Source: an uncultured Gammaproteobacteria bacterium | GTDB lineage: Bacteria; Patescibacteriota; Microgenomatia; Daviesbacterales; UBA10151 | Length of the DNA stretch: 32,000 bases | NCBI GenBank assembly: GCA_964522265.1 | Contig: CAZFVS010000001.1 | Span: 1 to 32,000, forward strand | Direction: 5' to 3' | Shown: positions 234-28,343 of the stretch, piece after piece | How positions within the stretch are numbered: the stretch's first letter is position 1 | Layout of the letters: every line of letters begins with the position of its first letter | Translations under genes and position numbers: made by a program | Notes under the pieces: model-generated | Database searches by the model: none | What the model was told of the DNA's origin: nothing | Seen by the model: only the letters and a program-made list of their open reading frames with translations

Positions 234-869
234 GTGGTTGAAGTAAAAAATATCGCTGAAAACTATTTTACCCAACTGAAGAGTGCAATTGAACAGATAA
301 ATCCCGCTGATATACAAGAAATTGCAGATATTTTATATAAAGCATACCAAGATGGAAAAACTATTTATCTGATAGGCAATGGTGGTTCTGCTTCAACATC
401 TTCCCATATTGCGATAGATATAGGCAAAGGAACTTTAAATAACTTCTATGATAAAAAAGAAAAAAGAATTAGAATCATTGCACTAACTGATAATGTTGCA
501 GCTATCACAGCTATTTCAAATGATCTTTCTTATGAGGATATATTTGTTGAGCAATTACATAATTTGATCAATCCCGGAGATATAGTGATTGGTATAAGTG
601 GTTCTGGTAATTCGCCAAATATTATAAAGGGCTTAATGCATGCAAAAGCTGAAGGGGCAGTTACAATAGGCTTTTTAGGGTTTCATGATGGAGGCAGGGC
701 TAAAGAATTTGTAGATTTTGATATTACAATTCAAAGTAAACATTACGGGGTGATTGAAGACCTGCATATGAGTTTAGGGCATATTTTAACGGATTGTTTA
801 GCGTATATGAAAAAACAAGAGAGAACGAGAAACTCTAAAAATAATCCTAAATTACAAACGGCAAATTAA
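234..869 (+). CDS. gmhA: D-sedoheptulose-7-phosphate isomerase (SIS domain, GmhA family)
   Basis: 211 aa with a GTG start. Four motifs are colinear with E. coli GmhA. GNGGSAS matches GNGGSHC, and NDLSYEDIF matches NDFGFNDIF. GISGSGNSPNIIK matches GISTSGNSANVIK, and IEDLHMSLGHIL matches IQEIHIKVIHIL. gmhB and a nucleotidyltransferase follow. Confidence 0.85.
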   Translation: MVEVKNIAENYFTQLKSAIEQINPADIQEIADILYKAYQDGKTIYLIGNGGSASTSSHIAIDIGKGTLNNFYDKKEKRIRIIALTDNVAAITAISNDLSYEDIFVEQLHNLINPGDIVIGISGSGNSPNIIKGLMHAKAEGAVTIGFLGFHDGGRAKEFVDFDITIQSKHYGVIEDLHMSLGHILTDCLAYMKKQERTRNSKNNPKLQTAN

Positions 870-887
870 TATTTAAGTTTTTGGTAA

Positions 888-1448
888 ATGATAAAAAACA
901 GAGCGGTTTTTTTGGACAGGGATGGAACAATTATTGAGCAGGTAGAATATCTTTACAGGTTGAAGGATTTAAAGGTACTTCCTAAAGCAGCTCATGCAAT
1001 AAGATTTTTGAATAAATTTAAAATCCCGACAATAGTTATCACAAACCAGCCGGTTGTATCAAAATGAATGATAACTGAAAAAGGGGTTGTAAAAATCCAT
1101 CAAAAATTACAGAAAATTTTAAACGGGTTTAATGCAAAAATAGATGAGTTTTATTTTTGTCCTCATCATCCGGATGGGGATGTTAAAAAATATAGAATAA
1201 TTTGTGAATGCCGAAAACCCTGCACTGGTCTTTTAAAAAAATCTGCTGAAAAATTTAATATAAAACCTAAAAACTCATTTATGATTGGGGATTCATTCAG
1301 GGATATAGAAGCAGGAAAAAATTTTGGCTGCAAAACAATTGCAGTTAGATGTGGTGTCTCCGATTTTCAAAAATCCAATCCTGATTTTTTGGTGGATGAT
1401 TTATACCATGCAGTTAGATTAATTTTAAAAAACTGGAGTTTAGCATGA
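888..1448 (+). pseudogene. gmhB: D-glycero-D-manno-heptose-1,7-bisphosphate phosphatase (HAD-IIIA, GmhB) interrupted by an in-frame TGA at 1065-1067; pseudogene, split gene or recoded
   Basis: From ATG 888 the translation is MIKNRAVFLDRDGTII...IVITNQPVVSK, then TGA, then ATG 1068 MITEKGV...FYFCPHHP...ICECRKP...MIGDSFRDIEAG. Both halves are in one frame (1068-888=180). HAD motif I (DRDGT), TNQ, the CPHH/CEC Zn-site pattern, RKP and GDxxxD are colinear with E. coli GmhB (191 aa; 186 codons here). The 59-codon N-terminal half is missing from the ORF track. Confidence 0.8.
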
Positions 1449-2161
1449 CAGCAATAATTCTGGCCGCGGGCTTAGGAACAAGAATGCAGGAAAAATATCC
1501 AGGCATTCCTAAAGTTATGCTATCCATTGGTGGTAAGCCTATTTTGGAACAAAATATTAATTATTTAAAAAAATTCGGTTTTGATAACATTTATATTAAT
1601 CTTCATCATCTACCGGAAAAAATTAAAAATTATTTTAAGAATGGTAAGAAATTTAGGGTGAACATTAGTTATTTTGAAGAACCCGTTATACTGGGAACAG
1701 CGGGCGCTTTAAGCAGTATGAAAAAAGACTTAAAGGAGAGGTTTGTGGTGCTTTACGGTGATATTTTCACAAAACTGGATTTTACAAAATTTTTGAATTT
1801 TCATAGTAGAAAAAAAAGCCAGGTAACTTTGCTGGTGCATGACAGCGATCATCCACTAGATAGTGACCTGATTGCATTGGATGATGAGCAAAGGGTTGTT
1901 AAGTTTTATATTTCTCCACACCCAAAGCCTGTTACTGATACTAAATTATCCAGTGCAGCAATATATATTTTAGAACCTGAGACACTAAAGTATATCCCCA
2001 AAAAAATCCCAGCAGATTTTATGGAGGATATGTTTCCTGATCTTTTACAAAAGGGTTTTAAAATGTACGGGTACAAATCTGATGATTATTCAAAAGACAT
2101 GGGGACACCGGAGAGGTATGAACAGGTGAAAAAGGATATAATTGCTCTAAATCTATTATGA
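1445..2161 (+). CDS. Sugar-1-phosphate nucleotidyltransferase (HddC-like by context)
   Basis: 238 aa. It has the N-terminal nucleotidyltransferase signature ILAAGLGTRM...PKVML..GGKPIL and GTAGAL. ATGA overlap with gmhB. Heptose-1-P specificity is inferred only from the gmhA/gmhB neighbours. Confidence 0.7.
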   Translation: MTAIILAAGLGTRMQEKYPGIPKVMLSIGGKPILEQNINYLKKFGFDNIYINLHHLPEKIKNYFKNGKKFRVNISYFEEPVILGTAGALSSMKKDLKERFVVLYGDIFTKLDFTKFLNFHSRKKSQVTLLVHDSDHPLDSDLIALDDEQRVVKFYISPHPKPVTDTKLSSAAIYILEPETLKYIPKKIPADFMEDMFPDLLQKGFKMYGYKSDDYSKDMGTPERYEQVKKDIIALNLL

Positions 2162-2210: not shown

Positions 2211-2245
2211 TGAAATCTGCTAAAAATAATAAGGAGCAGATTTCA
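2211..2245 (+). promoter_or_regulatory. 11-bp perfect hairpin covering part of the SD, the spacer and the first base of the ATG of the SDR gene
   Basis: TGAAATCTGCT (2211-2221) is the exact reverse complement of AGCAGATTTCA (2235-2245), with a 13-nt loop AAAAATAATAAGG. The SD AAGGAG is at 2231-2236 and the ATG at 2245-2247. Confidence 0.45.
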
Positions 2246-3357
2246 TGAGGATCCTTATCATTGGAGGCGCTGGTTTTATTGGTTCTCACACTGCGGACGA
2301 ACTTTTTAAAAGGGGGTATAAAATCAGGATTTTGGATAACCTTTCACCAAAAACCCACTTTGACAGATGGCCAAAATATTTAAATCCCAAGTTTGAAAAA
2401 ATAAAAGGTGATGTAAGGGATAGAAAAATTCTGGAAAGAGTTTTAAAAGGCGTAGAATATGTGATCCATTTGGCTGCCATTATGGATTTAATGCCGGATT
2501 ATTCTGTTTTCTTTGATACCAATGTTACTTCAACCGCTTTGCTTTACGAAATTATTGTTGCCAAAAAACTTTCCATCAAAAAGGTGATAGTTGCATCATC
2601 CCAATTTGTTTATGGGGAGGGGAGATGGAAATGTATGAGTCATAGGGAAGTTTTTCCCAAACAGCGGATTAATGATAATTTAATTAAGAAAAAATGGGAT
2701 CCTGTTTGCCCAAAATGTGGAGATAAAGTTACATCCTTGCCAAATTTAGAGACCCATCAAGACCCACCCAATCAGTATGCAATCTCCAAATATACCCAGG
2801 AGCTAATTGCCCTTAAATTGGGCAGATTAAACGGGATTCCTTCTGTTGCCATGCGTTACTCAATAGTTCATGGTCCTAGGCAGTCTTTAAAAAATGCTTA
2901 CTCTGGAGCTTTGAGAATTTTTACACTCCAGCTTTTAAACAATAAACCCCTGTCTATTTATGAAGACGGACTGCAGCAGCGGGATTATGTCTCAGTTTAT
3001 GATGTAGCTAGAGCTAATGCAGATGTGTTGGAATCAGGAAAAGCAGATTATGAAAACTTTAATGTCGGTTCTGGAAAAGCATTTACAGTTTTGGAACTTG
3101 CGACGATGGTGGCAAAAGTTTTGGGAAAAGATGTAAACTTTAAACCTACAGGGGAATTTAGAGTGGGGGATATCAGGCATGCTGTTTCTTCTATTACAAA
3201 ATTGGAAAAGTTAGAGTGGAAAGTAAAGGATAAAGAGGAAGATATTGTGAAAGAATATGTGAGTTGGGTTAAAGAACAAAAACTGGACCAGGATTATTTA
3301 AAAATAGCTGAAGCGCAGATGAAAGCCTTGGGTGTGGTCAAAAAAGCAGTACCGTAG
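2245..3357 (+). CDS. NAD-dependent sugar-nucleotide epimerase/dehydratase (extended SDR) with a Cys/His-rich insertion
   Basis: 370 aa. Rossmann motif IIGGAGFIGSH. Catalytic Ser is in VASSQ (S118/S119) and the Y178-x3-K182 motif is YAISK. The Ser-to-Tyr spacing is about 59 residues, against about 25 in GalE-type SDRs. Confidence 0.8.
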   Translation: MRILIIGGAGFIGSHTADELFKRGYKIRILDNLSPKTHFDRWPKYLNPKFEKIKGDVRDRKILERVLKGVEYVIHLAAIMDLMPDYSVFFDTNVTSTALLYEIIVAKKLSIKKVIVASSQFVYGEGRWKCMSHREVFPKQRINDNLIKKKWDPVCPKCGDKVTSLPNLETHQDPPNQYAISKYTQELIALKLGRLNGIPSVAMRYSIVHGPRQSLKNAYSGALRIFTLQLLNNKPLSIYEDGLQQRDYVSVYDVARANADVLESGKADYENFNVGSGKAFTVLELATMVAKVLGKDVNFKPTGEFRVGDIRHAVSSITKLEKLEWKVKDKEEDIVKEYVSWVKEQKLDQDYLKIAEAQMKALGVVKKAVP

Positions 3358-3392
3358 TTGTTTTAGCCTCAACAAACTGCTACGATTGATTC

Positions 3393-5078
3393 ATGGTTGG
3401 GTTTTTGTGGATTAAAAAACATGCTACAATTTCGCTTCTCTTGTTACTTTTAATCTTACTCATCCCTACCTTTTGGAGGATGCTCAAGCCCGGGATTTTT
3501 TCCATGCATGACTTCCATGTTTTTAGACTGTATGAATATGACAAATGTGTTGCAGATTTACAGATCCCCTGCAGGTGGGCGCCTGACTCCGCTTATGGAT
3601 ACGGAGAACCGATGTTTAATTTTTATACCCAACTTCCCTATGCTTTTGGAGAAATATTCAGGTTCTTAGGTTTTTCAGTTATTGATTCTATCAAAGCCCT
3701 TTTTATCTCATCCCTTATTTTATCTGCCTTTGCGATGTTTCTTTTGGCAAAACAGTTTTGGGGAAATAATTTATCAGCACTAATTTCTGCCCTGATCTAT
3801 ACGTATGCACCATATCGGGCAGTCGATGTTTGGGTAAGAGGTGCTTTGCCAGAAGCGCTAGCTTTCATTTTCTTCCCGCTTATTACTTATTATTTTAATG
3901 ATTATGTATTAAATAAAAGACTAAGGTCTCTTTTTCTGTTTGGCCTGGCTGTTTCAGGACTTGTTTTAACCCACAATCTTTCAATGCTAATGTTTTTCAT
4001 CTTCTTCAGTCTTTGGGCGATTTATTTTTTTACAAAATATAAAGCCTGGAATTTAATTCCAAAATTTATTCTGATTGGAATACTGAGTTTAGGAATAAGT
4101 GCTTTTTATATCTTACCCGTGGTTTTTGAAAGTAAACTGATAACTTTAACAGAAACGACACAAGGTTATTATGATTTTAAACTTCACTTTGTTACTTTAA
4201 AACAGCTTTTAATCTCAAGATATTGGGGGTATGGAGGATCGCTTTGGGGTAATGATGACAGGTTGAGTTTATCTGTAGGACAGATACAATGGATTTTGCC
4301 AATCCTGGTTGCACTAATTGTACTAATTAAAAAAAGACAAAGAAATTATCCGAGTTTTTTCTTTCTGTTAGGGATTGGTTGGTTTATGTTGTTTCTTACA
4401 CACAATAAGTCGGTTTTATTTTGGGACGCAGTAAAGCCTTTAAGTTTTGTCCAGTTCCCCTGGAGATTTTTAGGTTCTGCAGTTTTTCTTTTTGCTTTCG
4501 CCTCAGGTGCAATATTTACATTATTTAAAAAAAGTTATTTCAACAAAATTCTTTTTTTAGTTATTGCAGCGTTGCTTATAAGTTTTAATGCATCCTTTTT
4601 CTTTGAAGATTTATGGTTTAAATTCAGTGATAAAGAATTTTTCAGCGGTAAAAATTACGAACAACAAGTGACATCAGCTATACATGACTTCTGGCCCAAA
4701 ACAGGGGGGAAAGATGTTCCCTCTTCTTTTGCACCAAAAACAGGGACTTTTCTTGAAGGGATGGGGGATGTCAAATTAACAGAAAAAGCAAGCAATAGGC
4801 AATCGTATACTATTGATTCAGGAGGGTTGGGGGGAGTGGTGCAGTTTCCATTAGTTTATTTTCCGGGTTGGATCGGATCTTCCCCGAATCGCAATATTGA
4901 TCTTTTCCCCAGCGGCAAGCTAGGTTTAGCAACAGCAAAACTTAAGCCTCAGGAAAGTAAAATAAAATTAAAATTTTCCGATACACCAATAAGGACTGCA
5001 GGGAATTTTATATCTGAGTTTTCTGCAGGCCTTTTAATAGTTATCTTAATTTACTATAAAAGAAAAAAAGTAATATGA
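3393..5078 (+). CDS. Polytopic membrane protein, probable GT-C-fold glycosyltransferase (PTPS-related/YfhO-like group, from memory)
   Basis: 561 aa with about a dozen hydrophobic segments. The first-loop motif is MHDFHVFRLYEY...CRWAPDSAYGYGEPMFNFYTQLPY. The C-terminal roughly 150 aa are soluble and end in a final TM. The family call is unverified. Confidence 0.5.
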   Translation: MVGFLWIKKHATISLLLLLLILLIPTFWRMLKPGIFSMHDFHVFRLYEYDKCVADLQIPCRWAPDSAYGYGEPMFNFYTQLPYAFGEIFRFLGFSVIDSIKALFISSLILSAFAMFLLAKQFWGNNLSALISALIYTYAPYRAVDVWVRGALPEALAFIFFPLITYYFNDYVLNKRLRSLFLFGLAVSGLVLTHNLSMLMFFIFFSLWAIYFFTKYKAWNLIPKFILIGILSLGISAFYILPVVFESKLITLTETTQGYYDFKLHFVTLKQLLISRYWGYGGSLWGNDDRLSLSVGQIQWILPILVALIVLIKKRQRNYPSFFFLLGIGWFMLFLTHNKSVLFWDAVKPLSFVQFPWRFLGSAVFLFAFASGAIFTLFKKSYFNKILFLVIAALLISFNASFFFEDLWFKFSDKEFFSGKNYEQQVTSAIHDFWPKTGGKDVPSSFAPKTGTFLEGMGDVKLTEKASNRQSYTIDSGGLGGVVQFPLVYFPGWIGSSPNRNIDLFPSGKLGLATAKLKPQESKIKLKFSDTPIRTAGNFISEFSAGLLIVILIYYKRKKVI

Positions 5079-6691
5079 GAAAAAAATTGTTGATATTTTT
5101 TTTGATTATAATAATTGCTGTTTTTTTAAGGTTTTATAGATTGGATGAATTCCCTCCAAGTCTGAATTGGGATGAAATAAGCATAGGATATAATGCTTAC
5201 TCTATTTTAATGACAGGGAGAGACGAATGGGGGGAGTTTTTACCGTTATCATTTAGGGCATATGGAGACTATAAACTTCCGGGATATATTTACCTTGATA
5301 CTTTTTTTATCAGGGCTTTTGGGTTAAATGAATGGGGGGTAAGATTGCCTTCAGCAATCTTAGGGCTTTGGATTGTAATTTTTATCTTTTTAATTGCTAA
5401 AAATTTGACAAATACAAACCTGGCGCTTTGGGTGATGTTTATCTCTGCAGTAACACCATGGCTTATTATTCTTTCAAGAATTGCCTTGGAAGCAAACCTG
5501 GCGCTTTTTTTTACAACAGCATCCCTTTACTTTTTGCTTAGGGGAATTAAGAAAAAATATTTTTTACCCATCGCTACCCTATTTTTAGGGCTGTCGCTAT
5601 TTTCTTATAACTCTTCAAGAGTAGTGGTGTTGCCATTGACTTTACTTGCAGGTATTTTATTTTGGCAGAGAATCAAGAATACAAAAGCATCTTTGGTGGC
5701 ATTTACTGTACTGGCAATATTTTTTATTACAGCTTTTCCTTTGGCACTATTACAGGATTCTTCGGCAAGATATAAATGGACTACCATACTAGATGAGGGT
5801 GCAATCTCAAGAATTAATGAGTTACGCGGATCCGCTGCTTTACCTTCAGTTGTAGATAAACTGATTTACAACAAAATTACTTATTTTATACCCCAGGTGT
5901 TAGGGAATTATTTTTCGCACTTCAACCCCAACTTTTTATTTTTTAACGGAGGATCCAATTACCAATATTCTGTGCCCGGTTCAGGCCTGTTTCATATAAG
6001 TTTATTACCATTTTTAATATTAGGATTCTATCAAATTTTCCTAAAAAAAGAAAAATGGCAGTATTTTATTTTAGGATGGTTTCTTATTGCGCCACTGCCT
6101 GCTGCAATAACAAGGGATTCGCCCCATGCTCTTCGTTCGTTGCTGATGATCCCACCCTTTTTAATTATTTGTGTGTTTGGGATTAATGTTATAACACATA
6201 ACCTAAAACCTGTTTACGTAAAAGTGCTGCTTGCGATTTTTACCATAGTTTTAGTCTTTCAAACTGTACAGTTTTGGCAAAATTATATCGGTAATTATAC
6301 TAGGAGTTATTCCTGGTCATGGCAATATGGTTACAAAGAAACAATAAATTTCGTGAAACAAAATTATGGCAACTACTCAAAAGTATATTTTACAAAAAAG
6401 TATGGGGAACCACATGAGTTCATGTTGTTCTATCTCAAAATTGACCCTCAGTTTTTTAGAGACGGAGCTGTTCCTGTAAGATATAAAAAATCAGATTGGT
6501 ATTGGGTAGATAGTTTTGGTAAATTTGAATTTATTAACGATTGGGAAGTAAAAGAAAGATTAAAAAAAGAGCCAAAAGAAAAAAGTTTGTTAGTGACGAG
6601 TCCTGGAAATTATCCAGCAGGAAGTAAGTTGATAAAAACAATAAACTTTTTAGATGATCAGCCCGCGTTTGATATAGTAGAAATAAAATGA
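5075..6691 (+). CDS. ArnT/PMT_2-like (GT39/GT83-type) polyprenyl-phosphate-sugar-dependent glycosyltransferase, paralog 1
   Basis: 538 aa and multi-TM. The loop-1 acidic motif is NWDEISIGYNAYSIL..GRDEWGEFLPL.F.AYGDYKLPGY, comparable to the ArnT D-E...KPPL pattern. The conserved C-terminal domain contains YGEPHEFMLFY. ATGA overlaps occur at both ends. Confidence 0.7.
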   Translation: MRKKLLIFFLIIIIAVFLRFYRLDEFPPSLNWDEISIGYNAYSILMTGRDEWGEFLPLSFRAYGDYKLPGYIYLDTFFIRAFGLNEWGVRLPSAILGLWIVIFIFLIAKNLTNTNLALWVMFISAVTPWLIILSRIALEANLALFFTTASLYFLLRGIKKKYFLPIATLFLGLSLFSYNSSRVVVLPLTLLAGILFWQRIKNTKASLVAFTVLAIFFITAFPLALLQDSSARYKWTTILDEGAISRINELRGSAALPSVVDKLIYNKITYFIPQVLGNYFSHFNPNFLFFNGGSNYQYSVPGSGLFHISLLPFLILGFYQIFLKKEKWQYFILGWFLIAPLPAAITRDSPHALRSLLMIPPFLIICVFGINVITHNLKPVYVKVLLAIFTIVLVFQTVQFWQNYIGNYTRSYSWSWQYGYKETINFVKQNYGNYSKVYFTKKYGEPHEFMLFYLKIDPQFFRDGAVPVRYKKSDWYWVDSFGKFEFINDWEVKERLKKEPKEKSLLVTSPGNYPAGSKLIKTINFLDDQPAFDIVEIK

Positions 6692-8421: not shown

Positions 8422-8425
8422 ACAC

Positions 8426-11957: not shown

Positions 11958-11959
11958 TA

Positions 11960-17856: not shown

Positions 17857-18547
17857 CGTTGTAATGCCTGTTTATAATGGAGGAAAATACTTAAAACAAT
17901 CTTTGAAAAGTATTTTAAACCAAACGTATAAGAACTTTGAACTTATTGTTGTGAACGATGGTTCAACAGACTCAACAGCTAAAATTTTAACTACGATTAA
18001 TGATAAAAGACTTAAGATTATTCACAATATTTACAATGTAGGAGTAGCCAAGTCATTAAACAGAGGTTTAAAAATCGCAAAAGGTGATTATATAGCAAGA
18101 TGTGATAGTGATGATATAAATTTTAAAAAGAGGTTTAAAATACAGATAGATTTTTTAGATAAACATCTATCATATGCACTTGTTGGATCAAATGCAATGC
18201 TGATTGACGAAAAAGGTAAAAAAATAAAAAAGACTAGTTTGCCCGCAACTGATAGTCAGATAAGAAAAAAAATTTTATTTAGAAATCCAATTCTCCATCC
18301 AGCAGTGGTTTATCGAAAAAAATTAATGAATAAAACTATAAACTATAGAGAAATGTTTAATGGTGCTGAAGATTATGATTTATGGTTTAGGCTACTTAAG
18401 ATAGGGAAAGCATATAATTTTAAGGATTCTTTGATTAAGCATAGGATTCATAAAGACATCGTCACTAAAAAATTTCATCTTAAAATAGAATTATTAGCTT
18501 TGTTTGTCAGGCTTAATAATTTTTCATTTTTGAAATATATATTATGA
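17837..18547 (+). CDS. GT2-family glycosyltransferase
   Basis: 236 aa. Motifs are KISVVMPVYNGGKYLKQSLKSILNQTY.NFELIVVNDGSTDST and the DSDD acidic motif. It overlaps the upstream gene by 20 nt. Confidence 0.8.
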   Translation: MGKPKISVVMPVYNGGKYLKQSLKSILNQTYKNFELIVVNDGSTDSTAKILTTINDKRLKIIHNIYNVGVAKSLNRGLKIAKGDYIARCDSDDINFKKRFKIQIDFLDKHLSYALVGSNAMLIDEKGKKIKKTSLPATDSQIRKKILFRNPILHPAVVYRKKLMNKTINYREMFNGAEDYDLWFRLLKIGKAYNFKDSLIKHRIHKDIVTKKFHLKIELLALFVRLNNFSFLKYIL

Positions 18548-20541: not shown

Positions 20542-21308
20542 AAATTTTTAAAAAAATATTGATCTTAATGTTAAAACAGCTGGATTATGGGAGTGCTATA
20601 TCTGTACGTCTAATCAAACTTACTGGGAAGTCAACAGCACCGATACACCCGAAACATTTTTTAACAACAAAACCTTGGTTTGTCGAATATATTAAAGAAA
20701 AAGATGTTGTTTTAGATTTAGGATGCGGAAATGGCCAAAACTCATTGAAAATTGCAAAAGTTGCAAAAAAGGTTATAGGTATAGAAATTAACCCTAAATC
20801 TCTAGAAATAGCGATCAAAACTAGCAAGCATTTAAGAATTAGAAACATTAAATTTATTTTAGGAGATTTGGAAAAAAAATTACCAATTCCCAAGAAATCG
20901 ATAGATAAGGTGGTTATGCTTGCATTGCTTGAACATTTAAAAGAGCGCAATCAAATTATGGAAGAAATTAAAAAAGTGATAAAACCCGCAGGCTTACTTT
21001 TTATTAGCGTCCCTAATTCCCAAACGACTTGGAAAAAAATGCAACGAAGTGTTGGAATGTCATCTTATTCTGACCCTGATCATAAGATTGAGTACTCGGA
21101 GCGCCAAATAAAAAAATTTTTGTCCAAACATGGATTTATAATAAAACAATTAAATTATGGCACGTACGATACTCCGTGGAGAGGATTGATAGATATTATT
21201 GGTGGTTTTTCTCTTACCATGTATCGTGTAATGACCGATTTGCGACAAAAACTTGTCGCAAAAAACCCCAAAGAAGCGAGTGGGTTTGAAATAATTGCAT
21301 TTAAATAA
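20538..21308 (+). CDS. Class I SAM-dependent methyltransferase
   Basis: 256 aa. SAM-binding motif I is VLDLGCGNGQNS. It is followed by an acidic loop (GIEIN) and the LLEHL motif typical of Methyltransf_11/23-like proteins. Confidence 0.75.
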   Translation: MKIFKKILILMLKQLDYGSAISVRLIKLTGKSTAPIHPKHFLTTKPWFVEYIKEKDVVLDLGCGNGQNSLKIAKVAKKVIGIEINPKSLEIAIKTSKHLRIRNIKFILGDLEKKLPIPKKSIDKVVMLALLEHLKERNQIMEEIKKVIKPAGLLFISVPNSQTTWKKMQRSVGMSSYSDPDHKIEYSERQIKKFLSKHGFIIKQLNYGTYDTPWRGLIDIIGGFSLTMYRVMTDLRQKLVAKNPKEASGFEIIAFK

Positions 21309-22585
21309 TGAATATTTTAATGCTCTCTGAATATTTTACGCCGTTTGATTTTGGAGGCTCAGAGTGGAGTACTTACTATTTAGCAAAAGGATTGGCCAAA
21401 AACGGAGTGCACATTACTATTCTAACTCCGAACTATGGAAAAGAGAAAAATAAAGAGTTTAAAGAAGGATTCCTAATATATCGACCTGCGTTTTATAAAA
21501 AAATTAATCAAAAAAAACAATTAACACCCTTTTGGTATACAAATTTATTATGGTTTTTTTGGAGCTCTTTTTTTACTATAAAATATTGCTTTCAAAATAA
21601 AGTAGACTTAATTCATGTACAAGGAAAATATTTTCTACTCGCAGCAATCCTGGCTAAATTAATTTTAAGAAAAAAAATAATTATAACTCTGAGAGACTAT
21701 ATTATCTTATGCCCTCTAGGTATGTGTCTTTTGTATCAAAATAAATTATGTACTCCCCTGGAATTTATAAAAAATGATATTCCGAAACTGCTAAAAATTT
21801 ACCATAAAGATAAAAATTTAGTCGTCAAATGCATCTTATATTTGGAGGCAATACGGTTATGGTTTATAAGCTTTTTTCATAAAAAGATATTAAAATATGC
21901 AGATATTATTATTGCAATAAGCAATATAGAAAAAAAAATCTACCAAAAACAGGGATTTAATAATATTTCTGTAATTTCTAATCCTTATTTATTTAAAATC
22001 CTAAAGAAGGCCAGAAAAAAGAAAATAAATAATAAAATTGTATTTGCTGGAAGAATTACCCCCGGGAAAGGTGCAGATATTTTAATTAAGATAGCACCTA
22101 TTTTGATAAAAAAATTTAACAATGTAACCCTCTATTTTATTGGAGAAGGATTTTTAAAAAAGTATTTAATTAATGAATCAAGGATAAATAAATTTAAATC
22201 ACATGTAAAATTTTTAGGGCACATTGATCATAGTAGGCTAGAGGAGCATCTCAAAACAGCCAATTTAACAGTTATACCTTCTGTTTGGCCAGAACCATTT
22301 GGTCGGATTGCTCTCGAGTCTATAGGTGTAGGTACACCGATTGTAGTAAGCGACAGGTGCGGTGTATCTGAAAATATAATTGATAAAAGATGGGGTATAA
22401 TAAGTAGTCCTACAGAAACAGAACTACTAAAAAATATCAATCTAGCCCTGAAAAATCAAAATATAATGAGAAGTAATCTACAAAATGATTTTCTTCTAAT
22501 AAAGAATATTTGGTCGAATGATGTATACGATATGCACATAAGAATTTATAATCGATCAATAAAAAATACCTGCTCCTCAAAATGA
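21308..22585 (+). CDS. GT4 glycosyltransferase
   Basis: 425 aa. The N-terminus is MNILMLSEYFTPFDFGGSEW and the C-terminal catalytic region is WPEPFGRIALESIGVGTPIVVSDRCG. It is joined to the upstream gene by a TAATG junction. Confidence 0.75.
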   Translation: MNILMLSEYFTPFDFGGSEWSTYYLAKGLAKNGVHITILTPNYGKEKNKEFKEGFLIYRPAFYKKINQKKQLTPFWYTNLLWFFWSSFFTIKYCFQNKVDLIHVQGKYFLLAAILAKLILRKKIIITLRDYIILCPLGMCLLYQNKLCTPLEFIKNDIPKLLKIYHKDKNLVVKCILYLEAIRLWFISFFHKKILKYADIIIAISNIEKKIYQKQGFNNISVISNPYLFKILKKARKKKINNKIVFAGRITPGKGADILIKIAPILIKKFNNVTLYFIGEGFLKKYLINESRINKFKSHVKFLGHIDHSRLEEHLKTANLTVIPSVWPEPFGRIALESIGVGTPIVVSDRCGVSENIIDKRWGIISSPTETELLKNINLALKNQNIMRSNLQNDFLLIKNIWSNDVYDMHIRIYNRSIKNTCSSK

Positions 22586-23664
22586 TCTTAGGTATATATT
22601 TATCCATAGGTGATAGTTTATCTAATTTAGCAAATGTTGGACAGGATACACTATTTAAGAAATATTATCTAAGAAAATTCTCAAATGAATTTAAAGAGGT
22701 TTATATTTTTTCTTATAAAAAGGAGAAAATTCAAAACCTGCCTGAAAACGTAAAAATTATACCTAATAAATATAATTTACATCGGTATATTTATGCATGC
22801 TTACTTCCATTATTAAATTTTAAGTTTATCTACAAGTGTGATATTTTTAGGGCATATCATCTTTCGGGCACACCACCAGCAATATTAGGAAAAATTTTTT
22901 TAAATAAGCCTTTTGTCTTTAATTATGCATATAATTACAATGCCTTAGCTAAAATAGAGGGTCATATAATTCAAGCATATTTTTATAAATTAATTGAACC
23001 ACTTGCTATTTTCTTTTCATGCACTTTCTTTACTGCGAATAGAACTATTTATAAAAAATTTAAAAGTAAAAAAAATTTTTTTCTACCCAATGGAGTTGAT
23101 ATAAATATTTTCAAACCTCAAAAAAAGAATATAAAAAATAAAACCCCGCTGGTTTTGTCGGTAGGAAGATTAGAATTACAAAAAAACTACAAAAATTTAA
23201 TTATTGCTATGAAGGGTATAAATGCAAAACTTTTAATAGTAGGTAAAGGAAGGTTATATAAACAACTGTACAGATTAGCGAGAAAAGAGAATGTAAAACT
23301 ACAGATAATAAAAAAAATTGATCATAGTAAAATTGCTGGAATATATAGAAAATCAGATATCTTTATTCTTCCATCTCTTTTAGAAGGCCATCCCAAAACC
23401 CTTCTTGAAGCAATGTCAAGTGGAAAACCTGTCATAGGGACTGATGTTGAGGGGGTAAATGATTTAATTGAAAATAAAAAAAACGGCATACTTTGCAATA
23501 AGAATATAAGCGATATCAATAATGCTTTAAGGTTGTTATTATATAATAAGAAACTGCAACTTAAATTATCAAAACGGGCAAGGGAAACGGCAGTGAGTAG
23601 ATATAACATTAATTTACTTCTAGAAAAAGAATTAACAGTATTGATGGCTGCTTATGAGAAATAA
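22582..23664 (+). CDS. GT4 glycosyltransferase
   Basis: 360 aa. Motifs are LSVGRLELQKNYKNLI and LLEGHPKTLLEAMSSGKPVIGTDVEG (E-x7-E). ATGA overlap upstream. Confidence 0.75.
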   Translation: MILGIYLSIGDSLSNLANVGQDTLFKKYYLRKFSNEFKEVYIFSYKKEKIQNLPENVKIIPNKYNLHRYIYACLLPLLNFKFIYKCDIFRAYHLSGTPPAILGKIFLNKPFVFNYAYNYNALAKIEGHIIQAYFYKLIEPLAIFFSCTFFTANRTIYKKFKSKKNFFLPNGVDINIFKPQKKNIKNKTPLVLSVGRLELQKNYKNLIIAMKGINAKLLIVGKGRLYKQLYRLARKENVKLQIIKKIDHSKIAGIYRKSDIFILPSLLEGHPKTLLEAMSSGKPVIGTDVEGVNDLIENKKNGILCNKNISDINNALRLLLYNKKLQLKLSKRARETAVSRYNINLLLEKELTVLMAAYEK

Positions 23665-24718
23665 AATTTTCTATATTTACAGAACCAAAAGAGAGCCTAA
23701 TTTAAATGCTGACAAAGAAGGATTAGAACCTGACCATATTCTATATGGACTCAATCATATTAATAAGATGGGTATAAAAGCTGAGTTCAGTGATATTGCT
23801 TACTCAAAATTTAACATACTTTATTGGATTTTCCTCCCGATGCAATATATTTTGATCAAAATGACATCCTTTGGATTCAAAATTGATCAAGCTATATTGC
23901 TTTATCCAAAAATTAAAAAGAATAAAATTCTTATTTCTACGGCTGATAGCGCTGGTTTACCAATCCTTTTATTTAAAAAAATGGGTTTAATAACTTCTAA
24001 AGTAATTTATATAAGTACCGGTTTAATAAATGAGCTAAAAAAAAGAAAACAAAATTCCTTGATAAAGTTTTATTATAATTTATTAAACTATGCAGATAGA
24101 ATTATATGTCATTCAAAGGTAGAAAAGAAACTATTTCTAGAAAAAATCAGTATAAATAAAAATAAAATATACGTAGTTCCTTTTGGGATAGATTGGAATT
24201 TTTTTAAGGGTCAAGTCAAAAGTCAAAATTATATCTTATCAGTAGGCAGAGATAGGTCGAGAGATTTTAAGTTACTCAAAGAGGTTGCAAAAATATTAAA
24301 AAAAGAAGCCTTCGTATTGGTAACGAGTAAACCAAATACAAAAAATATAAAATTTCCAACGAATGTAAGCGTCTATTATGATATTTCTTATATAGAGGTA
24401 AGGAAATTCTATAGGAAATCAAAATTAGTCTTTATTCCACTAAAAGAATTAGATAGGGCGGAAGGGCAAATAAGCTTTCTTGAGTCTATTGCTTCTGAGA
24501 AAAAAATAGTTATATCTAAAGTGACCGGAATTTATGATACTTATAAGAAAATCATAAACCATAAAAAGATCTTTTTTTACAAGCCGGGTGATTTAAACGG
24601 GGCAGTAAAAAAAATTAAAATGGCTTTGAAGCATGTTGACAGGAGTACAATGATAAATAAATTTTATTCCTCAGAAAGTTATGCAAAAAAAATTTTGAAA
24701 ATAGCAAAAAAAACTTAA
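23654..24718 (+). CDS. GT-B-fold (GT4-like, divergent) glycosyltransferase
   Basis: 354 aa. VVPFGIDWNFF and ILSVGRDRSRDFKLL are GT4-like. The acidic motif is atypical (AEGQISFLES, E-x6-E). Confidence 0.55.
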   Translation: MRNKIFYIYRTKREPNLNADKEGLEPDHILYGLNHINKMGIKAEFSDIAYSKFNILYWIFLPMQYILIKMTSFGFKIDQAILLYPKIKKNKILISTADSAGLPILLFKKMGLITSKVIYISTGLINELKKRKQNSLIKFYYNLLNYADRIICHSKVEKKLFLEKISINKNKIYVVPFGIDWNFFKGQVKSQNYILSVGRDRSRDFKLLKEVAKILKKEAFVLVTSKPNTKNIKFPTNVSVYYDISYIEVRKFYRKSKLVFIPLKELDRAEGQISFLESIASEKKIVISKVTGIYDTYKKIINHKKIFFYKPGDLNGAVKKIKMALKHVDRSTMINKFYSSESYAKKILKIAKKT

Positions 24719-24725
24719 TTTACCA

Positions 24726-26300
24726 ATGCTGAATTTTTTTAAAAATCCAATATTCATATTAATATTAGTTGGGATATTTATTGGAGTATCTTTATTAGGA
24801 CATTTAAATTTAGGTACACCATCTATAGATTCGGCTACTTTTTTATATATAGCTAAAGAAATCACAAAAGGGAAAATTCCATACAAAGATATTTTTGATC
24901 ATAAGGTACCTCTTGTGTATTTTATTGATGTTGCGGGGTTGTTAATTAGCAAGCATTCTTTATTTGGAGTTTGGATGTTGGAATTCATATCACTTTTTGT
25001 TTCAGTAATCCTGAGTTTTTATTTGGTTAAAAAAATTTTTGGTCCCTTTCCAGCTTTTTTATCAACCCTCGCTTGGCTGAATATTTTCTTTAAATTATTA
25101 AATGGAGGCAATTTAACTGAAGAATATGCAATACCCTTTCAATTTGGGGGAATTTATCTTTTTTGGTTATCAGAAAATAAAGAGGATAAAAACAATAATA
25201 TAACCTGGATAGTATTTGGAATATTATCCGCCTTAGTATTTTTTTTAAAACAAAATCTAATAGGAATATTCTTTATAATATGTATTATAGAATTTATAAA
25301 GGGAGTAAGGAATAAAAAATGGAATCATTTAATAAAACTTTTCAGGAATTTTTTTATTGGAAATCTATTAGTGTTTCTTCCGTTTATGCTTTATTTTATA
25401 GTTAACGATGCTTTGAGCGATTTTTCCAACTTTGCTTTTAGGTATAATCTTTATTATTCAGGAAAAGCTTTTTCAAATTTTTTCAATGTTGTATTCAGCG
25501 GGCTCCAATTAATGTTATTTTCACCCCTTGGTTTTTTGGGACTTTTGGGGTGGTTTGATGTAGTAGTTGTTCTGCTGTATGGCTTTTATAGAAAAGAACT
25601 TAAAGACAAAAAAAGTATTTTATTTTTTTTACTTCTTCTTTTACCGATAGAGTATTTGTTAGTAAGTACAAGCGGGAAAATCTATACACATTATTATATA
25701 GTTTGGATTCCTGCAATGACTTTGCTTACGGGTTATATCATATATATGATACAGGCCTATTGGAAAAAAATGTGGTTTGGTCAAAAACAACATCGTGATG
25801 TAATACTTTTTTTAGTACTACCCGTCATAATATTATGGATTTTTTGGCAAAACTTGGTTTCGTTCTATCGTGGATTAGAATCCATACGTAATCTGCGCTA
25901 TCAAAAATTAGAAATATCTAATTTTATTGACCATAATACTTCTTCGGATGACTATATTTTTATTTGGGGGGTTGGATCCACTATAAACTTTGATTCAAAC
26001 AGACGATCACCCTCCAGGTTTATTTACCAAACACCGCTATATATAAAGGGTTTTCAGAATCCGTCGATGTACTACGAATTACTATATGATTTAATAAATA
26101 AAACCCCAGAGTATATTTTAGACGGAAATACTCAAAAAGATAAATTTAGACCAATTATTTGTAACAAACCATTTCGTATAGAAGATTACCACCCTGCTAT
26201 GATACCTCTTTCGGAAATAAAAATTGTTGAAAACTTTATTTGTAAAAATTATAAAATTATAGGTATAATTGATGGCTATAAAGTTTTAAAGAAGATATGA
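24726..26300 (+). CDS. Polytopic membrane protein, ArnT/PMT_2-like GT-C glycosyltransferase
   Basis: 524 aa and multi-TM. The first loop, PSIDSATFLYIAKEITKGKIPYKDIFDHKVPLVYFI, parallels the ArnT-type D...G..PY...KPPL pattern. The C-terminal roughly 130 aa are soluble. Confidence 0.5.
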   Translation: MLNFFKNPIFILILVGIFIGVSLLGHLNLGTPSIDSATFLYIAKEITKGKIPYKDIFDHKVPLVYFIDVAGLLISKHSLFGVWMLEFISLFVSVILSFYLVKKIFGPFPAFLSTLAWLNIFFKLLNGGNLTEEYAIPFQFGGIYLFWLSENKEDKNNNITWIVFGILSALVFFLKQNLIGIFFIICIIEFIKGVRNKKWNHLIKLFRNFFIGNLLVFLPFMLYFIVNDALSDFSNFAFRYNLYYSGKAFSNFFNVVFSGLQLMLFSPLGFLGLLGWFDVVVVLLYGFYRKELKDKKSILFFLLLLLPIEYLLVSTSGKIYTHYYIVWIPAMTLLTGYIIYMIQAYWKKMWFGQKQHRDVILFLVLPVIILWIFWQNLVSFYRGLESIRNLRYQKLEISNFIDHNTSSDDYIFIWGVGSTINFDSNRRSPSRFIYQTPLYIKGFQNPSMYYELLYDLINKTPEYILDGNTQKDKFRPIICNKPFRIEDYHPAMIPLSEIKIVENFICKNYKIIGIIDGYKVLKKI

Positions 26301-27349
26301 CTGTTTGTTATTTTGGATCCTACGAACCGCAATACCCAAGGAATGTAATTACCATGAAGGGATTTAAAGCGTTAGGTTGGGATATTATTGAATGCAACGA
26401 TCGCACGGGTGGTATCAAGCATTATTTAGGACTAATAAATCAGTTTGTCAAAGGTTGTAGAAAATCAAACTTGATATTTATAGGCGTTTTAGGACATTAT
26501 GATGTTCCTTTGGCATGGATTATGGCTAAGGCATTCAAAAAAAAAATCATATTTGATGCTTTTTATTCTGTTTATGATACTTACGTTGAGGATAGAAAAG
26601 CATATAAAAAATGGAGTTTGAATGCCCTAAGGTTTTATTTTTACGATTGGATCTCGGTTAGACTGGCAGATAAAGTAATACTGGATACCAATGAACAAAT
26701 AGAATATTTTATTAAAGAATTTCACTTATCTGGTAAAAAATTCTTTGAACTACCAGTTTGTGCAGATGACCAGATTTTTAAAAAGGGAAGCATTAAAAAA
26801 CATACCGTACCCACTATTGGTTTCTACGGCAGTTTTCTTCCTCTGCATGGAGTTAGTGTAATAGTTGAAGTAATGAACATACTTAGAAAAGACTCATTTC
26901 GGTGTTATTTATTAGGTTCAGGTCCAGGGTTAAAGGTTATTAAGAAAGAGGTCACCAATAGGAGATTAAAAGGTAAGATAAAATTTTATAAAAACTTACC
27001 TTATTCAGATCTTCCGAAATTCTTTACAATGATTGATTTGTTTTTAGCAGGACCTTTTGGTAACACAAATAAAGCACAAAGGATATTGCTTGCAAAAACA
27101 GTTGAGGCCCTATCTTTTGGGATTCCTACTGTAATAACAAAAACTCCGGCTTGTAAAAGGCTTATCGGTAAATATAAAAATAATGTTATTTGGGTTGAAA
27201 ATAACAAACCAGATACTTTAACGAAAATAATTAAAGATTTCTTCAAGACATTTGATCAAAAAAATGCTCAATTTAAACAATCTAAAGATGACTTTCCGTT
27301 AAGTTTTTTGAATTTTACTAAAAAAATGAACGAAATTATCACTTATTAA
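26297..27349 (+). CDS. GT-B-fold glycosyltransferase-like protein (divergent GT4-like)
   Basis: 350 aa. The N-terminal VCYFGSYEPQYPRN pattern and the central IGFYGSFLPLHGVSVIVE...LLGSGPG resemble a GT4 subgroup. There is no clear E-x7-E. Confidence 0.45.
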   Translation: MTVCYFGSYEPQYPRNVITMKGFKALGWDIIECNDRTGGIKHYLGLINQFVKGCRKSNLIFIGVLGHYDVPLAWIMAKAFKKKIIFDAFYSVYDTYVEDRKAYKKWSLNALRFYFYDWISVRLADKVILDTNEQIEYFIKEFHLSGKKFFELPVCADDQIFKKGSIKKHTVPTIGFYGSFLPLHGVSVIVEVMNILRKDSFRCYLLGSGPGLKVIKKEVTNRRLKGKIKFYKNLPYSDLPKFFTMIDLFLAGPFGNTNKAQRILLAKTVEALSFGIPTVITKTPACKRLIGKYKNNVIWVENNKPDTLTKIIKDFFKTFDQKNAQFKQSKDDFPLSFLNFTKKMNEIITY

Positions 27350-27350
27350 T

Positions 27351-28343
27351 ATGCAACAACTTTTATATTTAGTTCCATCAGCATCTTCGTATAAAAAAGC
27401 GATAGGAAATGCCTTTCTTCAACTTGGTTGGAAAGTTAAATATTTTGATTACAGAAAAGGTGACTTTCCCATTAGAGTCTATAGATTTCTACCTTTAATC
27501 GGCGGTTTTGAGAAAGCCAAGACAGTTTTAGAGAATAGGATTATAGAAATAAACAAAGAATTAAAACCCGATTTAATTCTTACTGCAAAAGGAGAACTAT
27601 TAACGGAAAGAGTGATGAAAACTATAAAAAAATCCTGGAATATAACAGCTAATATATTTCCTGACTATTTAAACCACTGGGAGCTAATAAAAAAAATTTC
27701 TGCTTATTATGATTTCTTCTTTACTTTTGATAATGCCATAATAAAAAAATTAAAGAGAATTGGAAGGAAGAATGTATATTATATGCCGCAAGCAACCCAA
27801 CCAGAGAAGAATATAAAAAAAGGAAAAAAATATGATGTTTCATTTGTCGGAACATATAATAAATGGCGGGAAAATTATTTCACTGGATTGAGAAGTCTTG
27901 ATTTTAATATTTGGGGGGATAAAAGATGGTTTAATTCCTCACTGAAAAAATATGTAAGGGGTGGAAGGATACCACTAAAAAGAATGAAGGAAATTATTAA
28001 AAAAAGTAGAATCAATATAAATGTTTTTTTTGATGATGAGACTCCAATGGAAGGAGTGAGTATTAGGCCGTATGAAATTACCGGCTCAGGAGGATTTTTG
28101 TTGACTCAATATGTTAAGGATTATGATAATGTTTTTTTAAATAAAAAAGAAATAGTTTATTTTAAAACTCCGGCGGAAATGAAAAGATATATTGAATTTT
28201 ATCTCAAGAAAGATGATTTAAGAAACAAAATAGCTGAAAGAGGCTATGTAAGAACTTTAAAAGATCATACTTATGAAATTCGTATGAAACAAATGCTTAT
28301 AATTATAAATAAAGCCCGGAAAAAAGGATCATTTGATATCTGA
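27351..28343 (+). CDS. CgeB-like glycosyltransferase (DUF3880 plus Glyco_trans_1_2-type C-terminus)
   Basis: 330 aa. INVFFDD....GVSIRPYEITGSGGFLLTQY...EIVYFKTPAEMKRYIEFYLKKDDLRNKIAERGYVRTLKDHTYEIRMKQM matches the CgeB-family pattern as I recall it (R-x-FE-x-x-G-x-G...HTY..R). Confidence 0.6.
   Translation: MQQLLYLVPSASSYKKAIGNAFLQLGWKVKYFDYRKGDFPIRVYRFLPLIGGFEKAKTVLENRIIEINKELKPDLILTAKGELLTERVMKTIKKSWNITANIFPDYLNHWELIKKISAYYDFFFTFDNAIIKKLKRIGRKNVYYMPQATQPEKNIKKGKKYDVSFVGTYNKWRENYFTGLRSLDFNIWGDKRWFNSSLKKYVRGGRIPLKRMKEIIKKSRININVFFDDETPMEGVSIRPYEITGSGGFLLTQYVKDYDNVFLNKKEIVYFKTPAEMKRYIEFYLKKDDLRNKIAERGYVRTLKDHTYEIRMKQMLIIINKARKKGSFDI

Follow-up and report, generated by a model that had tools for sequence, protein, structure and literature searches.

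A candidate envelope-glycan gene cluster with seven GT-C membrane glycosyltransferases in a Daviesbacteria-like Microgenomates bacterium

The stretch of DNA analysed here, 32 kb in length, is referred to as the window. It holds a run of 24 co-directional genes on the + strand (g1 to g24, positions 234-28343), as revealed by the ORF list and gap analysis. Neighbouring genes in this run are tightly packed and share exactly ten 4-nt overlaps of the ATGA type, in agreement with an earlier note on this DNA. That note also gave a maximum gap of 83 nt, which holds only when g2 is read from position 888; otherwise, the ORF finder leaves a 198-nt gap. Likely internal starts are found in g8 (8426), g11 (11960) and g13 (14599). 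From the spacing alone, we infer a single transcript for the run. Promoter and terminator scans of the window gave totals at chance level, and a promoter-like TTGACA-N18-TAGGAT at 198-227 (+) is suggestive only by its position, directly upstream of g1. A GC-rich 8-bp hairpin is located at 24-43.

Pfam searches reproduced the domain counts of the earlier note: three GT2 enzymes (g9, g13, g16), nine GT-B domains (g10, two in g15, g17, g19, g20, g21, g23, g24), two SDR domains (g4 and the N-terminal domain of g17) and one methyltransferase. All NCBIfam matches were below the equivalog cut-offs, and the names used here mark family likeness, not sugar identity. Downstream of the run, g25 (28329-29726, -, likely start 29678) is a convergent soluble enzyme with a GT-B fold, from an uncharacterised family with WDN..SSK and RPHP motifs and conserved synteny. 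It is followed by g26 (29739-31064, +), a TagF-like CDP-glycerol glycerophosphotransferase family protein by Pfam, also a conserved neighbour.

The first four genes are related to sugar supply. The SIS-domain sugar-phosphate isomerase g1 (234-869) is GmhA-like (Pfam SIS_2, 72.7 bits), with 105.8 bits against the TIGR00441 gmhA model, below its cut-off of 209. The GmhB-like HAD phosphatase g2 (888-1448), assigned by Pfam and frame analysis, has an N-terminal DRDGT motif upstream of an in-frame TGA at 1065-1067; its orthologues in the related loci L001 and L005 are intact. A sugar-1-phosphate nucleotidyltransferase of the mannose-1-P guanylyltransferase/HddC type, g3 (1445-2161; Pfam and NCBIfam), and an SDR epimerase/dehydratase, g4 (2245-3357; Pfam), follow. 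The latter is 77-85% identical to its L005 and L001 counterparts. A heptose-nucleotide module had been proposed earlier. The module is incomplete: the phosphatase gene is interrupted, and no GHMP kinase was found within the 32-kb window, whereas relatives do have one. Judging by the in-frame stop and the missing kinase, the module looks defective here. Further along the run, g17 (18544-20541) is an SDR-GT4 fusion by Pfam, with an L007 orthologue that has no SDR domain, and g18 (20538-21308) is a SAM-dependent methyltransferase by Pfam.

Seven membrane proteins had been described as GT-C-like, and all seven proved to be GT-C by Pfam, family matches, the fold of g5 and acidic residues in loop 1. 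The first, g5 (3393-5078), is YfhO/PTPS_related in type; its C-terminal part has a beta-sandwich and ends with a TM helix. Among 35 members of its family, 23 matched PTPS_related and 13 matched YfhO. In its AF2 model (pLDDT 89.8), the top 31 PDB fold matches were all GT-C enzymes: PglB, AglB, STT3, ArnT, AftD, AftA, Emb, Pmt4 and DPY19. The paralogues g6 (5075-6691), g7 (6688-8421) and g8 (8393-10054) were above the Pfam threshold for PMT_2/PMT, and g12 (13410-14558) for PIG-V (Mannosyl_trans2). For g11 (11897-13405; PMT_2 type) and g22 (24726-26300; PMT_2/PF27757 type), PMT_2 was carried by relatives, and alignments showed invariant first-loop acidic residues, DD in g11 and D35 in g22. The earlier note had left room for g5, g11 and g22 to be Wzx, Wzy/ligase or ABC proteins; all three are GT-C.

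These proteins could serve protein O-glycosylation, as in actinobacterial Pmt or S. mutans Pgf: the GT-Cs, especially the PMT paralogues g6-g8, would move polyprenyl-phosphate sugars to proteins that are secreted or lie on the surface (S-layer, pilins, adhesins), with soluble GTs elaborating the glycan. Besides exceeding the PMT (PF02366) threshold, g6-g8 have a W/A-D-E motif in loop 1 that resembles PMTs, and protein acceptors would fit their PMT-family matches equally well. Oligosaccharyltransferases top the fold matches of g5, the GT2 g13 and related GT2s match PgfS and AglJ, and pilin glycosylation was suggested bioinformatically in a CPR bacterium (PMC11623550). However, PMT_2/PMT profiles also capture ArnT-like lipid/glycan transferases, and the sole PDB sequence match of g7 is ArnT, although weak. 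YfhO, matched by the g5 family, is a teichoic acid glycosylating protein (PMC8035078), and the OST WWDYG-type motif is absent from the invariant columns of the g5 family alignment. The cluster has no acceptor protein gene, and g25 and g26, which are TagF-like and conserved next to it, suggest a polymer. We consider protein O-glycosylation unlikely; the acceptor would most likely be a secondary cell-wall or membrane-anchored glycopolymer.

Directly after g12, two genes offer a source of lipid-linked donors. By Pfam, NCBIfam and solved structures, g13 (14551-15276) is a GT2 of the polyprenyl-phosphate sugar synthase type (PpgS/GacI/DPMS/ArnC-like). Its best NCBIfam match, over the full length, was PpgS, and its four closest solved structures were a Dol-P-Man synthase and three ArnC sequences. 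The small membrane protein g14 (15278-15637) carries DUF2304 (Pfam 89.3 bits, cut-off 25.5), like GacJ and Rv3632, the known activators of GacI and PpgS (10.1101/180810). By these likenesses, g13 and g14 are a predicted polyprenyl-phosphate sugar synthase pair of the GacI/GacJ (PpgS/Rv3632) type, and thus direct support for lipid-linked monosaccharide donors. The earlier reader had proposed that such donors feed the GT-Cs without recognising this pair; the idea gains further support from six relatives in which an N-terminal GT2 is fused onto a g5-like GT-C. The triad of PIG-V-like GT-C, GT2 and DUF2304 protein recurs in L001, L005 and L011, and also in L007, where the edge of the locus truncates the g12-like gene. 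L010 has g11-like and PIG-V-like genes, and its contig ends before the GT2.

The remaining glycosyltransferases are cytoplasmic. By Pfam and NCBIfam, they include the GT2 g9 (10051-10911), with an ambiguous role as donor synthase or chain GT, the GT4 g10 (10908-11957), the tandem double GT4 g15 (15634-17856) and g16 (17837-18547), a GT2 of the EpsE/TuaG-like chain-building type. Three GT4/GT-B enzymes follow, g19, g20 and g21 (21308-24718; Pfam), and the run ends with the GT4 g23 and with g24, a DUF3880 + Glyco_trans_1_2 protein resembling WaaS/CpsH (both within 26297-28343; Pfam and NCBIfam). The suggestion that the glycan is built largely outside the cytoplasm was overstated, since 12 cytoplasmic GT domains outnumber seven GT-Cs.

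The nearest loci belong to Ca. Daviesbacteria, Blackburnbacteria and Woesebacteria (Microgenomates), in line with the CPR-type host considered earlier. Every part of the cluster was syntenic in at least one of ten related loci, with L001 and L005 sharing g4-g14 and L007 sharing g12-g27. A core (g4/g5-g10, g12) was kept in all ten related loci covering it, across the three groups, and g9 came after the block's last GT-C in 10 of 10 loci covering that slot. The g15-g24 half was found only in the clade of the window, in full in L007 and, in L005, with just the beginning of a double GT4 resembling g15. A composite locus could explain this pattern, with at least two juxtaposed modules, the conserved core and a clade-specific GT4-rich extension, that make or decorate different products. 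The GC content falls along the run from 0.37 to 0.28, g11 varies among close relatives (present in L010, absent from L001 and L005), and the module after g12 alternates between Wzx+GT2 and GT2+DUF2304. However, the 4-nt overlaps run on across the g12/g13 and g14/g15 junctions, and L005 and L007 retain the gene order. Such a composite reading appears improbable, and it would be compatible with an envelope-glycan operon, not exclusive of it.

Among the 27 proteins of the window, Pfam and NCBIfam gave no match to Wzx, Wzy, ABC or phosphoglycosyltransferase families, so the earlier note was right that the stretch holds no primer, flippase, polymerase or exporter. Its reading of the missing flipping module as a property of the system was not supported. 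Five of the nine homologous clusters covering the slot (L002, L003, L006, L008, L009) carry a Polysacc_synt/Wzx (MOP) flippase gene adjoining a GT2, where the clade of the window has GT2+DUF2304. The missing flippase is therefore a clade-specific feature and not the logic of the system, and the gene content of these relatives indicates that this system type does use a flippase. Apart from these five Wzx genes, neither the window nor the ±10 kb around any related locus showed a primer, flippase, LCP ligase or exporter; that the missing functions are provided in trans is thus assumed. Unlinked components are normal in characterised Gram-positive systems and not, as had been proposed, a sign of new logic. 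The GAS primer gene gacO is unlinked to its cluster (10.1101/180810), and cflA of L. lactis is another such example in a wall-glycan system (PMC8035078). Multi-component systems combine a separate GT-A and TM partner with Wzx or GtrA flippases, which are often unlinked (reviewed in PMC8035078).

The stronger reading of the earlier note was a primer-independent lipoglycan pathway, resembling mycobacterial LM/LAM or ER pathways. The GT4s would begin synthesis on a membrane lipid itself; their product would be flipped by an unspecified route and then lengthened, mostly by the GT-Cs, with polyprenyl-phosphate sugars as donors, so that a phosphoglycosyltransferase, Wzy or exporter would not be needed. 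Indeed, neither the window nor the related loci to ±10 kb showed a primer, polymerase or exporter, and GT-Cs are numerous (seven here, up to nine in L004). L009 has an MptA_B_family GT-C, L002 a weak GT87 match, and g10 resembles diacylglycerol glucosyltransferases at a low level over its full length; in a saccharibacterium, a PIM-like pathway has been put forward (PMC6031116). However, the GT4 matches are unspecific and all lie well under the cut-offs, and the Wzx genes of the five relatives argue for a flippase step of the conventional kind. In genomes of ~1 Mb, absence within 10 kb carries little weight, and comparable Gram-positive systems as a rule have unlinked primers (10.1101/180810). 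A pathway of this kind is doubtful.

Among known systems, the S. pyogenes gacA-L cluster (GacI/GacJ/GacK/GacL) shares the cytoplasmic GT2 and DUF2304 protein making a polyprenyl-phosphate sugar, the GT-C transferring it outside, and the setting among cytoplasmic GT genes. It has one GT-C instead of seven; in-cluster Wzx (GacK), ABC exporter (GacD/E) and rhamnose genes are absent here, and g13 comes nearer to PpgS than to any equivalog cut-off. In mycobacteria, PpgS (Rv3631) is the best NCBIfam match of g13, Rv3632 shares the DUF2304 family with g14, and Rv3779 is paralleled by the adjacent GT-C g12. Mycobacterial arabinogalactan/LAM pathways also use many GT-Cs on lipid-phosphate sugars, with an unassigned flippase. 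Unlike these, our host is a CPR bacterium; its GT-Cs are of other families (PMT_2, YfhO/PTPS_related, PIG-V), and no orthologues of Emb, Aft or Mpt enzymes were identified in the window. Firmicute systems (CsbB/GtcA/YfhO, GtlA/GtlB, Csd pairs) share the logic of GT-A donor synthase plus GT-C, including the YfhO matches of the g5 family, and may rely on a shared, unlinked flippase (PMC8035078). They consist of two or three genes decorating a polymer made elsewhere, whereas here this logic is merged with the 12 cytoplasmic GT domains in a 28-kb run, and a GtrA-type protein is absent. Eukaryotic and archaeal LLO assembly (ALG GT4s, Dol-P-Man/Glc synthases, lumenal ALG3/9/12/6/8/10, PIG-V) similarly combines cytoplasmic GT-B enzymes with several GT-Cs fed by a DPMS-like GT2. 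Further parallels are g12, in the PIG-V family, and the archaeal Dol-P-Man synthase, the closest solved structure to g13. An ALG7-like primer and STT3-type motif were not found here, and this likeness is one of logic only, not of membership.

On balance, the cluster is somewhat more probably than otherwise an operon for envelope-glycan biosynthesis in a Daviesbacteria-like Microgenomates (CPR) bacterium, working on both sides of the membrane, with presumed donors, topology and co-transcription. Modified nucleotide sugars would come from the g1-g4 products together with the SDR domain of g17. About eleven cytoplasmic GT domains (possibly g9, then g10, both of g15, g16, g17, g19-g21, g23, g24), together with g18, would build a lipid-linked glycan at the inner membrane face. 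With its helper g14, g13 would transfer the sugar of a nucleotide sugar to polyprenyl phosphate, and g12-g13-g14 may form one cognate unit. After flipping, the seven GT-Cs would extend the glycan on the outer face from lipid-phosphate donors. The priming phosphoglycosyltransferase, flippase(s) and final ligase would be encoded elsewhere in the same genome. The single clear donor synthase in the cluster (g13), set against seven GT-Cs, counts against this explanation. An expanded multi-component transmembrane glycosylation system is the best reading. Dividing the synthesis of a surface glycan between the two sides of the membrane is a known strategy, and it would be present here at unusually high density.

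The ORF list bore out a run of 24 co-directional plus-strand genes (g1 to g24, 234-28343), and ten of its junctions were 4-nt overlaps of the ATGA type, the number given in the earlier note. The remaining junctions lay mostly between -29 and +7 nt. What looked like a gap of 198 nt (869-1068) holds the 5' part of a HAD phosphatase gene, which starts at 888. The 233 nt 5' of g1 are non-coding; a GC-rich hairpin lies there, and a TTGACA-N18-TAGGAT element immediately precedes g1. Because promoter and terminator scans gave counts no better than shuffles (chance level), it is the spacing only that suggests co-transcription of g1 to g24. The tRNA and Rfam scans of the window were empty. Four minus-strand ORFs of 107-189 aa (7949-8272, 8656-9225, 15768-16316, 20585-20950) lie wholly inside plus-strand genes and are most likely shadow ORFs.

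Pfam reproduced the domain counts of the earlier note: three GT2 domains (g9, g13, g16), nine GT-B domains (g10, two in g15, g17, g19, g20, g21, g23, g24), two SDR domains (g4 and the N-terminal domain of g17) and one methyltransferase (g18). GT-C proteins above the Pfam threshold were g6, g7 and g8 (PMT_2 and PMT) and g12 (13410-14558, PIG-V). The first three are paralogues with 32-35% identity, scoring 40.7, 53.4 and 27.7 bits with PF02366 (PMT; cut-off 22.7). No GT received an equivalog-level name from NCBIfam. Hydropathy estimates gave 7-12 TM segments for each of g5 to g8, g11, g12 and g22, which we counted as agreeing with the 8-13 or more TM helices of polytopic GT-Cs. All seven proteins were polytopic, resembled the GT-C superfamily in sequence or fold, and had acidic residues in loop 1. 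Family alignments revealed these as invariant at D40 in g5, D49-D50 in g11 and D35 in g22. The first loop of g6 to g8 carries a W/A-D-E motif (WDE or ADE), and loop 1 of g12 an FDGVHY motif, read from one sequence only.

The product of g5 (3393-5078), a protein with more than 1,100 homologues, itself matched nothing in Pfam, NCBIfam or the PDB sequences. Within its family, PTPS_related was matched by 23 of 35 members and YfhO by 13 of 35. An AlphaFold (AF2) model built on the family alignment (pLDDT 89.8, pTM 0.90) showed a multi-helix bundle with a terminal TM helix and a C-terminal beta-sandwich. When solved structures were searched with this fold, the best 31 matches were all GT-C, namely PglB, AglB, STT3, ArnT, AftD, AftA, EmbA/B/C, Pmt4 and DPY19; none had the fold of a flippase, a ligase or an ABC protein. 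The fold search thus ruled out g5 as a Wzy, an O-antigen ligase or a flippase.

Relatives of g11 (11897-13405) and g22 (24726-26300) had PMT_2 matches and ArnT-like or GT39 names. Against the PDB sequences, the g22 profile found ArnT, weakly, at E 0.003, and the family profiles of g5, g11 and g25, a gene just past g24, found nothing significant. ArnT was also the sole PDB sequence relative of g7, again a weak one. In the earlier note, g5, g11 and g22 were the genes that could have turned out to be flippases, polymerases, ligases or ABC proteins. All three are GT-C, g5 by fold and family matches and g11 and g22 by matches in relatives and loop-1 Asp, so this reassignment does not arise. From what is known of the family and from the co-located g13 and g14, we infer that the GT-Cs use a polyprenyl-phosphate-linked donor on the outer face of the membrane.

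A feature overlooked in the earlier note is the predicted donor-synthase pair formed by g13 (GT2) and g14 (DUF2304) at 14551-15637. The best NCBIfam match of g13 was PpgS, the polyprenyl-phospho-GalNAc synthase of mycobacteria (141.5 bits over the full length, below the equivalog cut-off of 370); the nearest model was not a Ppm1-type synthase. Its top four PDB sequence matches were a Dol-P-Man synthase (DPMS) and three ArnC, enzymes that are polyprenyl-phosphate glycosyltransferases. The g14 product matched DUF2304 at 89.3 bits (cut-off 25.5), and its gene starts 1 nt past the end of g13. In characterised systems, the DUF2304 proteins GacJ and Rv3632 bind and activate GacI and PpgS, and the products, GlcNAc-P-Und and polyprenyl-P-GalNAc, go to the GT-Cs GacL and Rv3779 (10.1101/180810; PMC8035078). 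The triad of PIG-V-like GT-C, GT2 and DUF2304 genes recurs in three related loci (L001, L005 and L011). It was also seen in L007, where the locus edge truncates the g12-like gene, and in L010 a PIG-V-like gene occupies the same slot on a contig that ends before the GT2. As the triad recurs across related loci, g12, g13 and g14 are probably one cognate unit. The PMT-family matches of g6 to g8 would also fit protein O-glycosylation as the function of the cluster, a reading that we regard as rather unlikely.

The nearest relatives of the cluster were found in Ca. Daviesbacteria (L001), two further MAGs, Ca. Blackburnbacteria and Ca. Woesebacteria, and they place the host in the CPR/Microgenomates, as the earlier note had considered. 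Protein identity to L001 was 73-88% over g4 to g14. A core of a g5-like gene, two to three PMT genes, a GT2 and a GT4 was present in all ten loci covering this region, with one PMT_2-type gene fewer in L006. Locus L011 has another arrangement, without the g6-g8/g9/g10 core. The match to the window extends from the heptose genes through g15 in L005 and from g12 through g27, including g25, g26 and the transketolase gene, in L007. GT-C paralogues are more numerous in relatives, with up to nine in 20 kb (L004). Six relatives encode fusions of ~800 aa with an N-terminal GT2 and a g5-like GT-C (L002:7551-9965, L003:7366-9954, L004:6308-8722, L005:2467-4935, L006:311-2710, L009:7626-10004). The best matches of their GT2 domains included PgfS, ArnC, AglJ and Dol-P-hexose transferase, with weak scores. 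The fusions form a Rosetta-stone link between donor-synthase-type GT2s and the g5-like GT-C family, and they may be self-supplying donor-synthase/transferase enzymes.

Several further observations were made in these loci. The SDR-GT4 fusion g17 (18544-20541) is specific to the window lineage, and in its orthologue L007:4683-5819 (378 aa) the GT4 stands alone. Loci L002 (CAYMZD010000003.1) and L003 (CAYMIA010000004.1), titled 'uncultured Gammaproteobacteria', carry a Microgenomates-type cluster at 50-68% identity, and the 'Gammaproteobacteria' label of these MAGs is probably wrong. In L011, several radical-SAM/B12-binding enzymes and a GT2-methyltransferase fusion (5143-6144, 11462-12865, 17836-20686) are interleaved with a GT-C/GT2/DUF2304 cluster, a hint that the sugars of this relative are C-methylated or unusual in some other way.

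The presence of g11 varied among close relatives: it has a counterpart in the same slot at L010:3444-4889 (67% identity) and is absent at the g10/g12 junction of L001 and L005. GC content falls along the run from ~0.37 at 3000-9000, in the conserved core, to ~0.28 at 21000-26000, in the GT4-rich half, and is back up to 0.39 at the transketolase gene. Such variation is typical of variable glycan loci. The uneven distribution of g11, the GC drop and the fact that g15 to g24 were seen only in the window's clade, set beside a widespread core, would all fit a composite cluster, a reading that we nevertheless hold to be very unlikely.

Across the whole 32 kb, the earlier statement that primer, flippase, polymerase and exporter are missing was upheld. 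No phosphoglycosyltransferase (WbaP/Bac_transf or WecA/MraY) was matched by Pfam or NCBIfam among the 27 window proteins, nor was a GtrA- or Wzx-type flippase. Likewise, the window has no Wzx with a Wzy polymerase/ligase and no Wzm/Wzt exporter. It thus differs from Wzx/Wzy- or ABC-dependent polysaccharide loci, lacking their initiating phosphoglycosyltransferase, Wzx/Wzy and Wzm/Wzt. Compared with GacIJKL and CsbB-GtcA-YfhO systems, it has a polyprenyl-phosphate-sugar GT-A (g13) with a DUF2304 partner but no GtrA- or Wzx-type flippase.

Five homologous clusters do contain a Wzx/MOP gene (Polysacc_synt/Polysacc_synt_3), at L002:19659-20954, L003:18490-19743, L006:11944-13182, L008:19882-21141 and L009:18405-19670. 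There, Wzx directly precedes a GT2, in the slot that holds GT2+DUF2304 in the window, L001, L005 and L007. The nine loci covering the slot had either Wzx+GT2 (~260 aa) or GT2 (~225 aa)+DUF2304, and never both. The absence of a flipping module therefore describes the window and its clade, but not the type of system, because five relatives have Wzx in the same slot of the cluster. A phosphoglycosyltransferase or an ABC exporter was not seen within 10 kb in any related locus. A primer-independent route resembling LM/LAM lipoglycan synthesis is an improbable explanation. In characterised Gram-positive systems the primer gene (gacO) is often unlinked (10.1101/180810; PMC8035078), and so is the flippase, as in L. 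lactis, where cflA acts for three GT-A/GT-C pairs (PMC8035078).

The sugar-nucleotide genes of the window encode a SIS isomerase (g1), a HAD phosphatase (g2) and a nucleotidyltransferase (g3). GmhA-like g1 and HddC-like g3, both scoring under the NCBIfam equivalog cut-offs, are what stands of the heptose-nucleotide module named previously; its kinase is missing and g2 is interrupted, and an intact four-enzyme set for GDP-D-glycero-D-manno-heptose (GmhA, HddA, GmhB, HddC) was not found in the window. Intact orthologues have Gly or Lys where GmhB-like g2 (888-1448) has its in-frame TGA (1065-1067). No other in-frame TGA occurs in the 9,353 codons, and TGA ends 13 of the 24 genes, so the genetic code is standard and UGA recoding (code 25 or 4) was rejected. 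The stop probably arose by a nonsense mutation or from an assembly/sequence error. No GHMP kinase was found in the window and no kinase remnant in positions 1-233, whereas a GHMP (HddA-like) kinase adjoins the heptose genes at L001:3837-4814 and L005:4932-5909. With g2 interrupted and the kinase missing, this genome may be losing the module.

On the minus strand, g25 (28329-29726) converges on g24, overlapping it by 15 nt at the 3' end. It had no family match. Its model (pLDDT 93.8) is a soluble GT-B fold, with UDP-GlcNAc 2-epimerases and GT-B transferases as top fold matches, which ruled it out as a membrane polymerase or exporter. It belongs to an uncharacterised GT-B-fold family, large at more than 1,100 representatives, in which WDN..SSK and RPHP motifs are invariant; it is tentatively linked to TagF and the TagF-like g26 (hhalign probability 42%). 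Fusions of this protein to a TPR + DUF3880 + Glyco_trans_1_2 (g24-like) module or to a sulfotransferase occur in some relatives. As the acceptor we favour a wall- or membrane-anchored glycopolymer; suggestive of it are the YfhO-type g5, with its C-terminal beta-sandwich, and the conserved TagF-like neighbours.

The cluster is best explained as an expanded multi-component transmembrane glycosylation system. In this model about eleven cytoplasmic GT domains, supplied with nucleotide sugars, would assemble a lipid-linked glycan, accompanied by methylation. The g13/g14 pair would make a polyprenyl-phosphate sugar, and the seven GT-Cs would then add sugars outside the membrane. Since the cytoplasmic GT domains outnumber the GT-Cs, assembly "largely outside" the cytoplasm, as first proposed, was abandoned. 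A bolder proposal, unlikely in our estimation, is that in this CPR lineage the main envelope glycoconjugate arises by a route like that of the ER or of mycobacteria. GT4s would begin synthesis on a membrane lipid, with no phosphoglycosyltransferase involved, and seven to nine tandemly expanded GT-Cs, some fused to a donor-synthase GT2, would extend the glycan mostly outside from polyprenyl-phosphate sugars. GT2+DUF2304 would have replaced Wzx+GT2 in the Daviesbacteria-like clade, which, if true, would imply Wzx-independent presentation of the lipid-linked sugar.

CPR/Patescibacteria episymbionts depend on surface contact, and to our knowledge the envelopes of this group are almost uncharacterised. 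The components and logic of the cluster are already known. New are how densely the GT-Cs are packed and how far they have expanded in tandem, their combination with a large set of GT4s in a single conserved, operon-like run of a reduced genome, and the alternation of Wzx with the DUF2304 module. Our literature search found no description of the cluster, and GT-C clusters in CPR only in passing remarks; multiple "dolichol-phosphate mannosyltransferase" genes were noted in Peribacteria (PMC4736985), and a PIM-like pathway was proposed for a saccharibacterium (PMC6031116). The cluster would take up perhaps 3% of a ~1-Mb genome, a fraction inferred from a complete relative of 916 kb, which points to a major surface structure. 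It offers as handles the g13/g14 synthase pair, the YfhO-like GT-C family (>1,000 members) and the swap between Wzx and DUF2304. This swap could inform how lipid-linked monosaccharides cross membranes, a question that mycobacterial PpgS/Rv3632/Rv3779 raises too.
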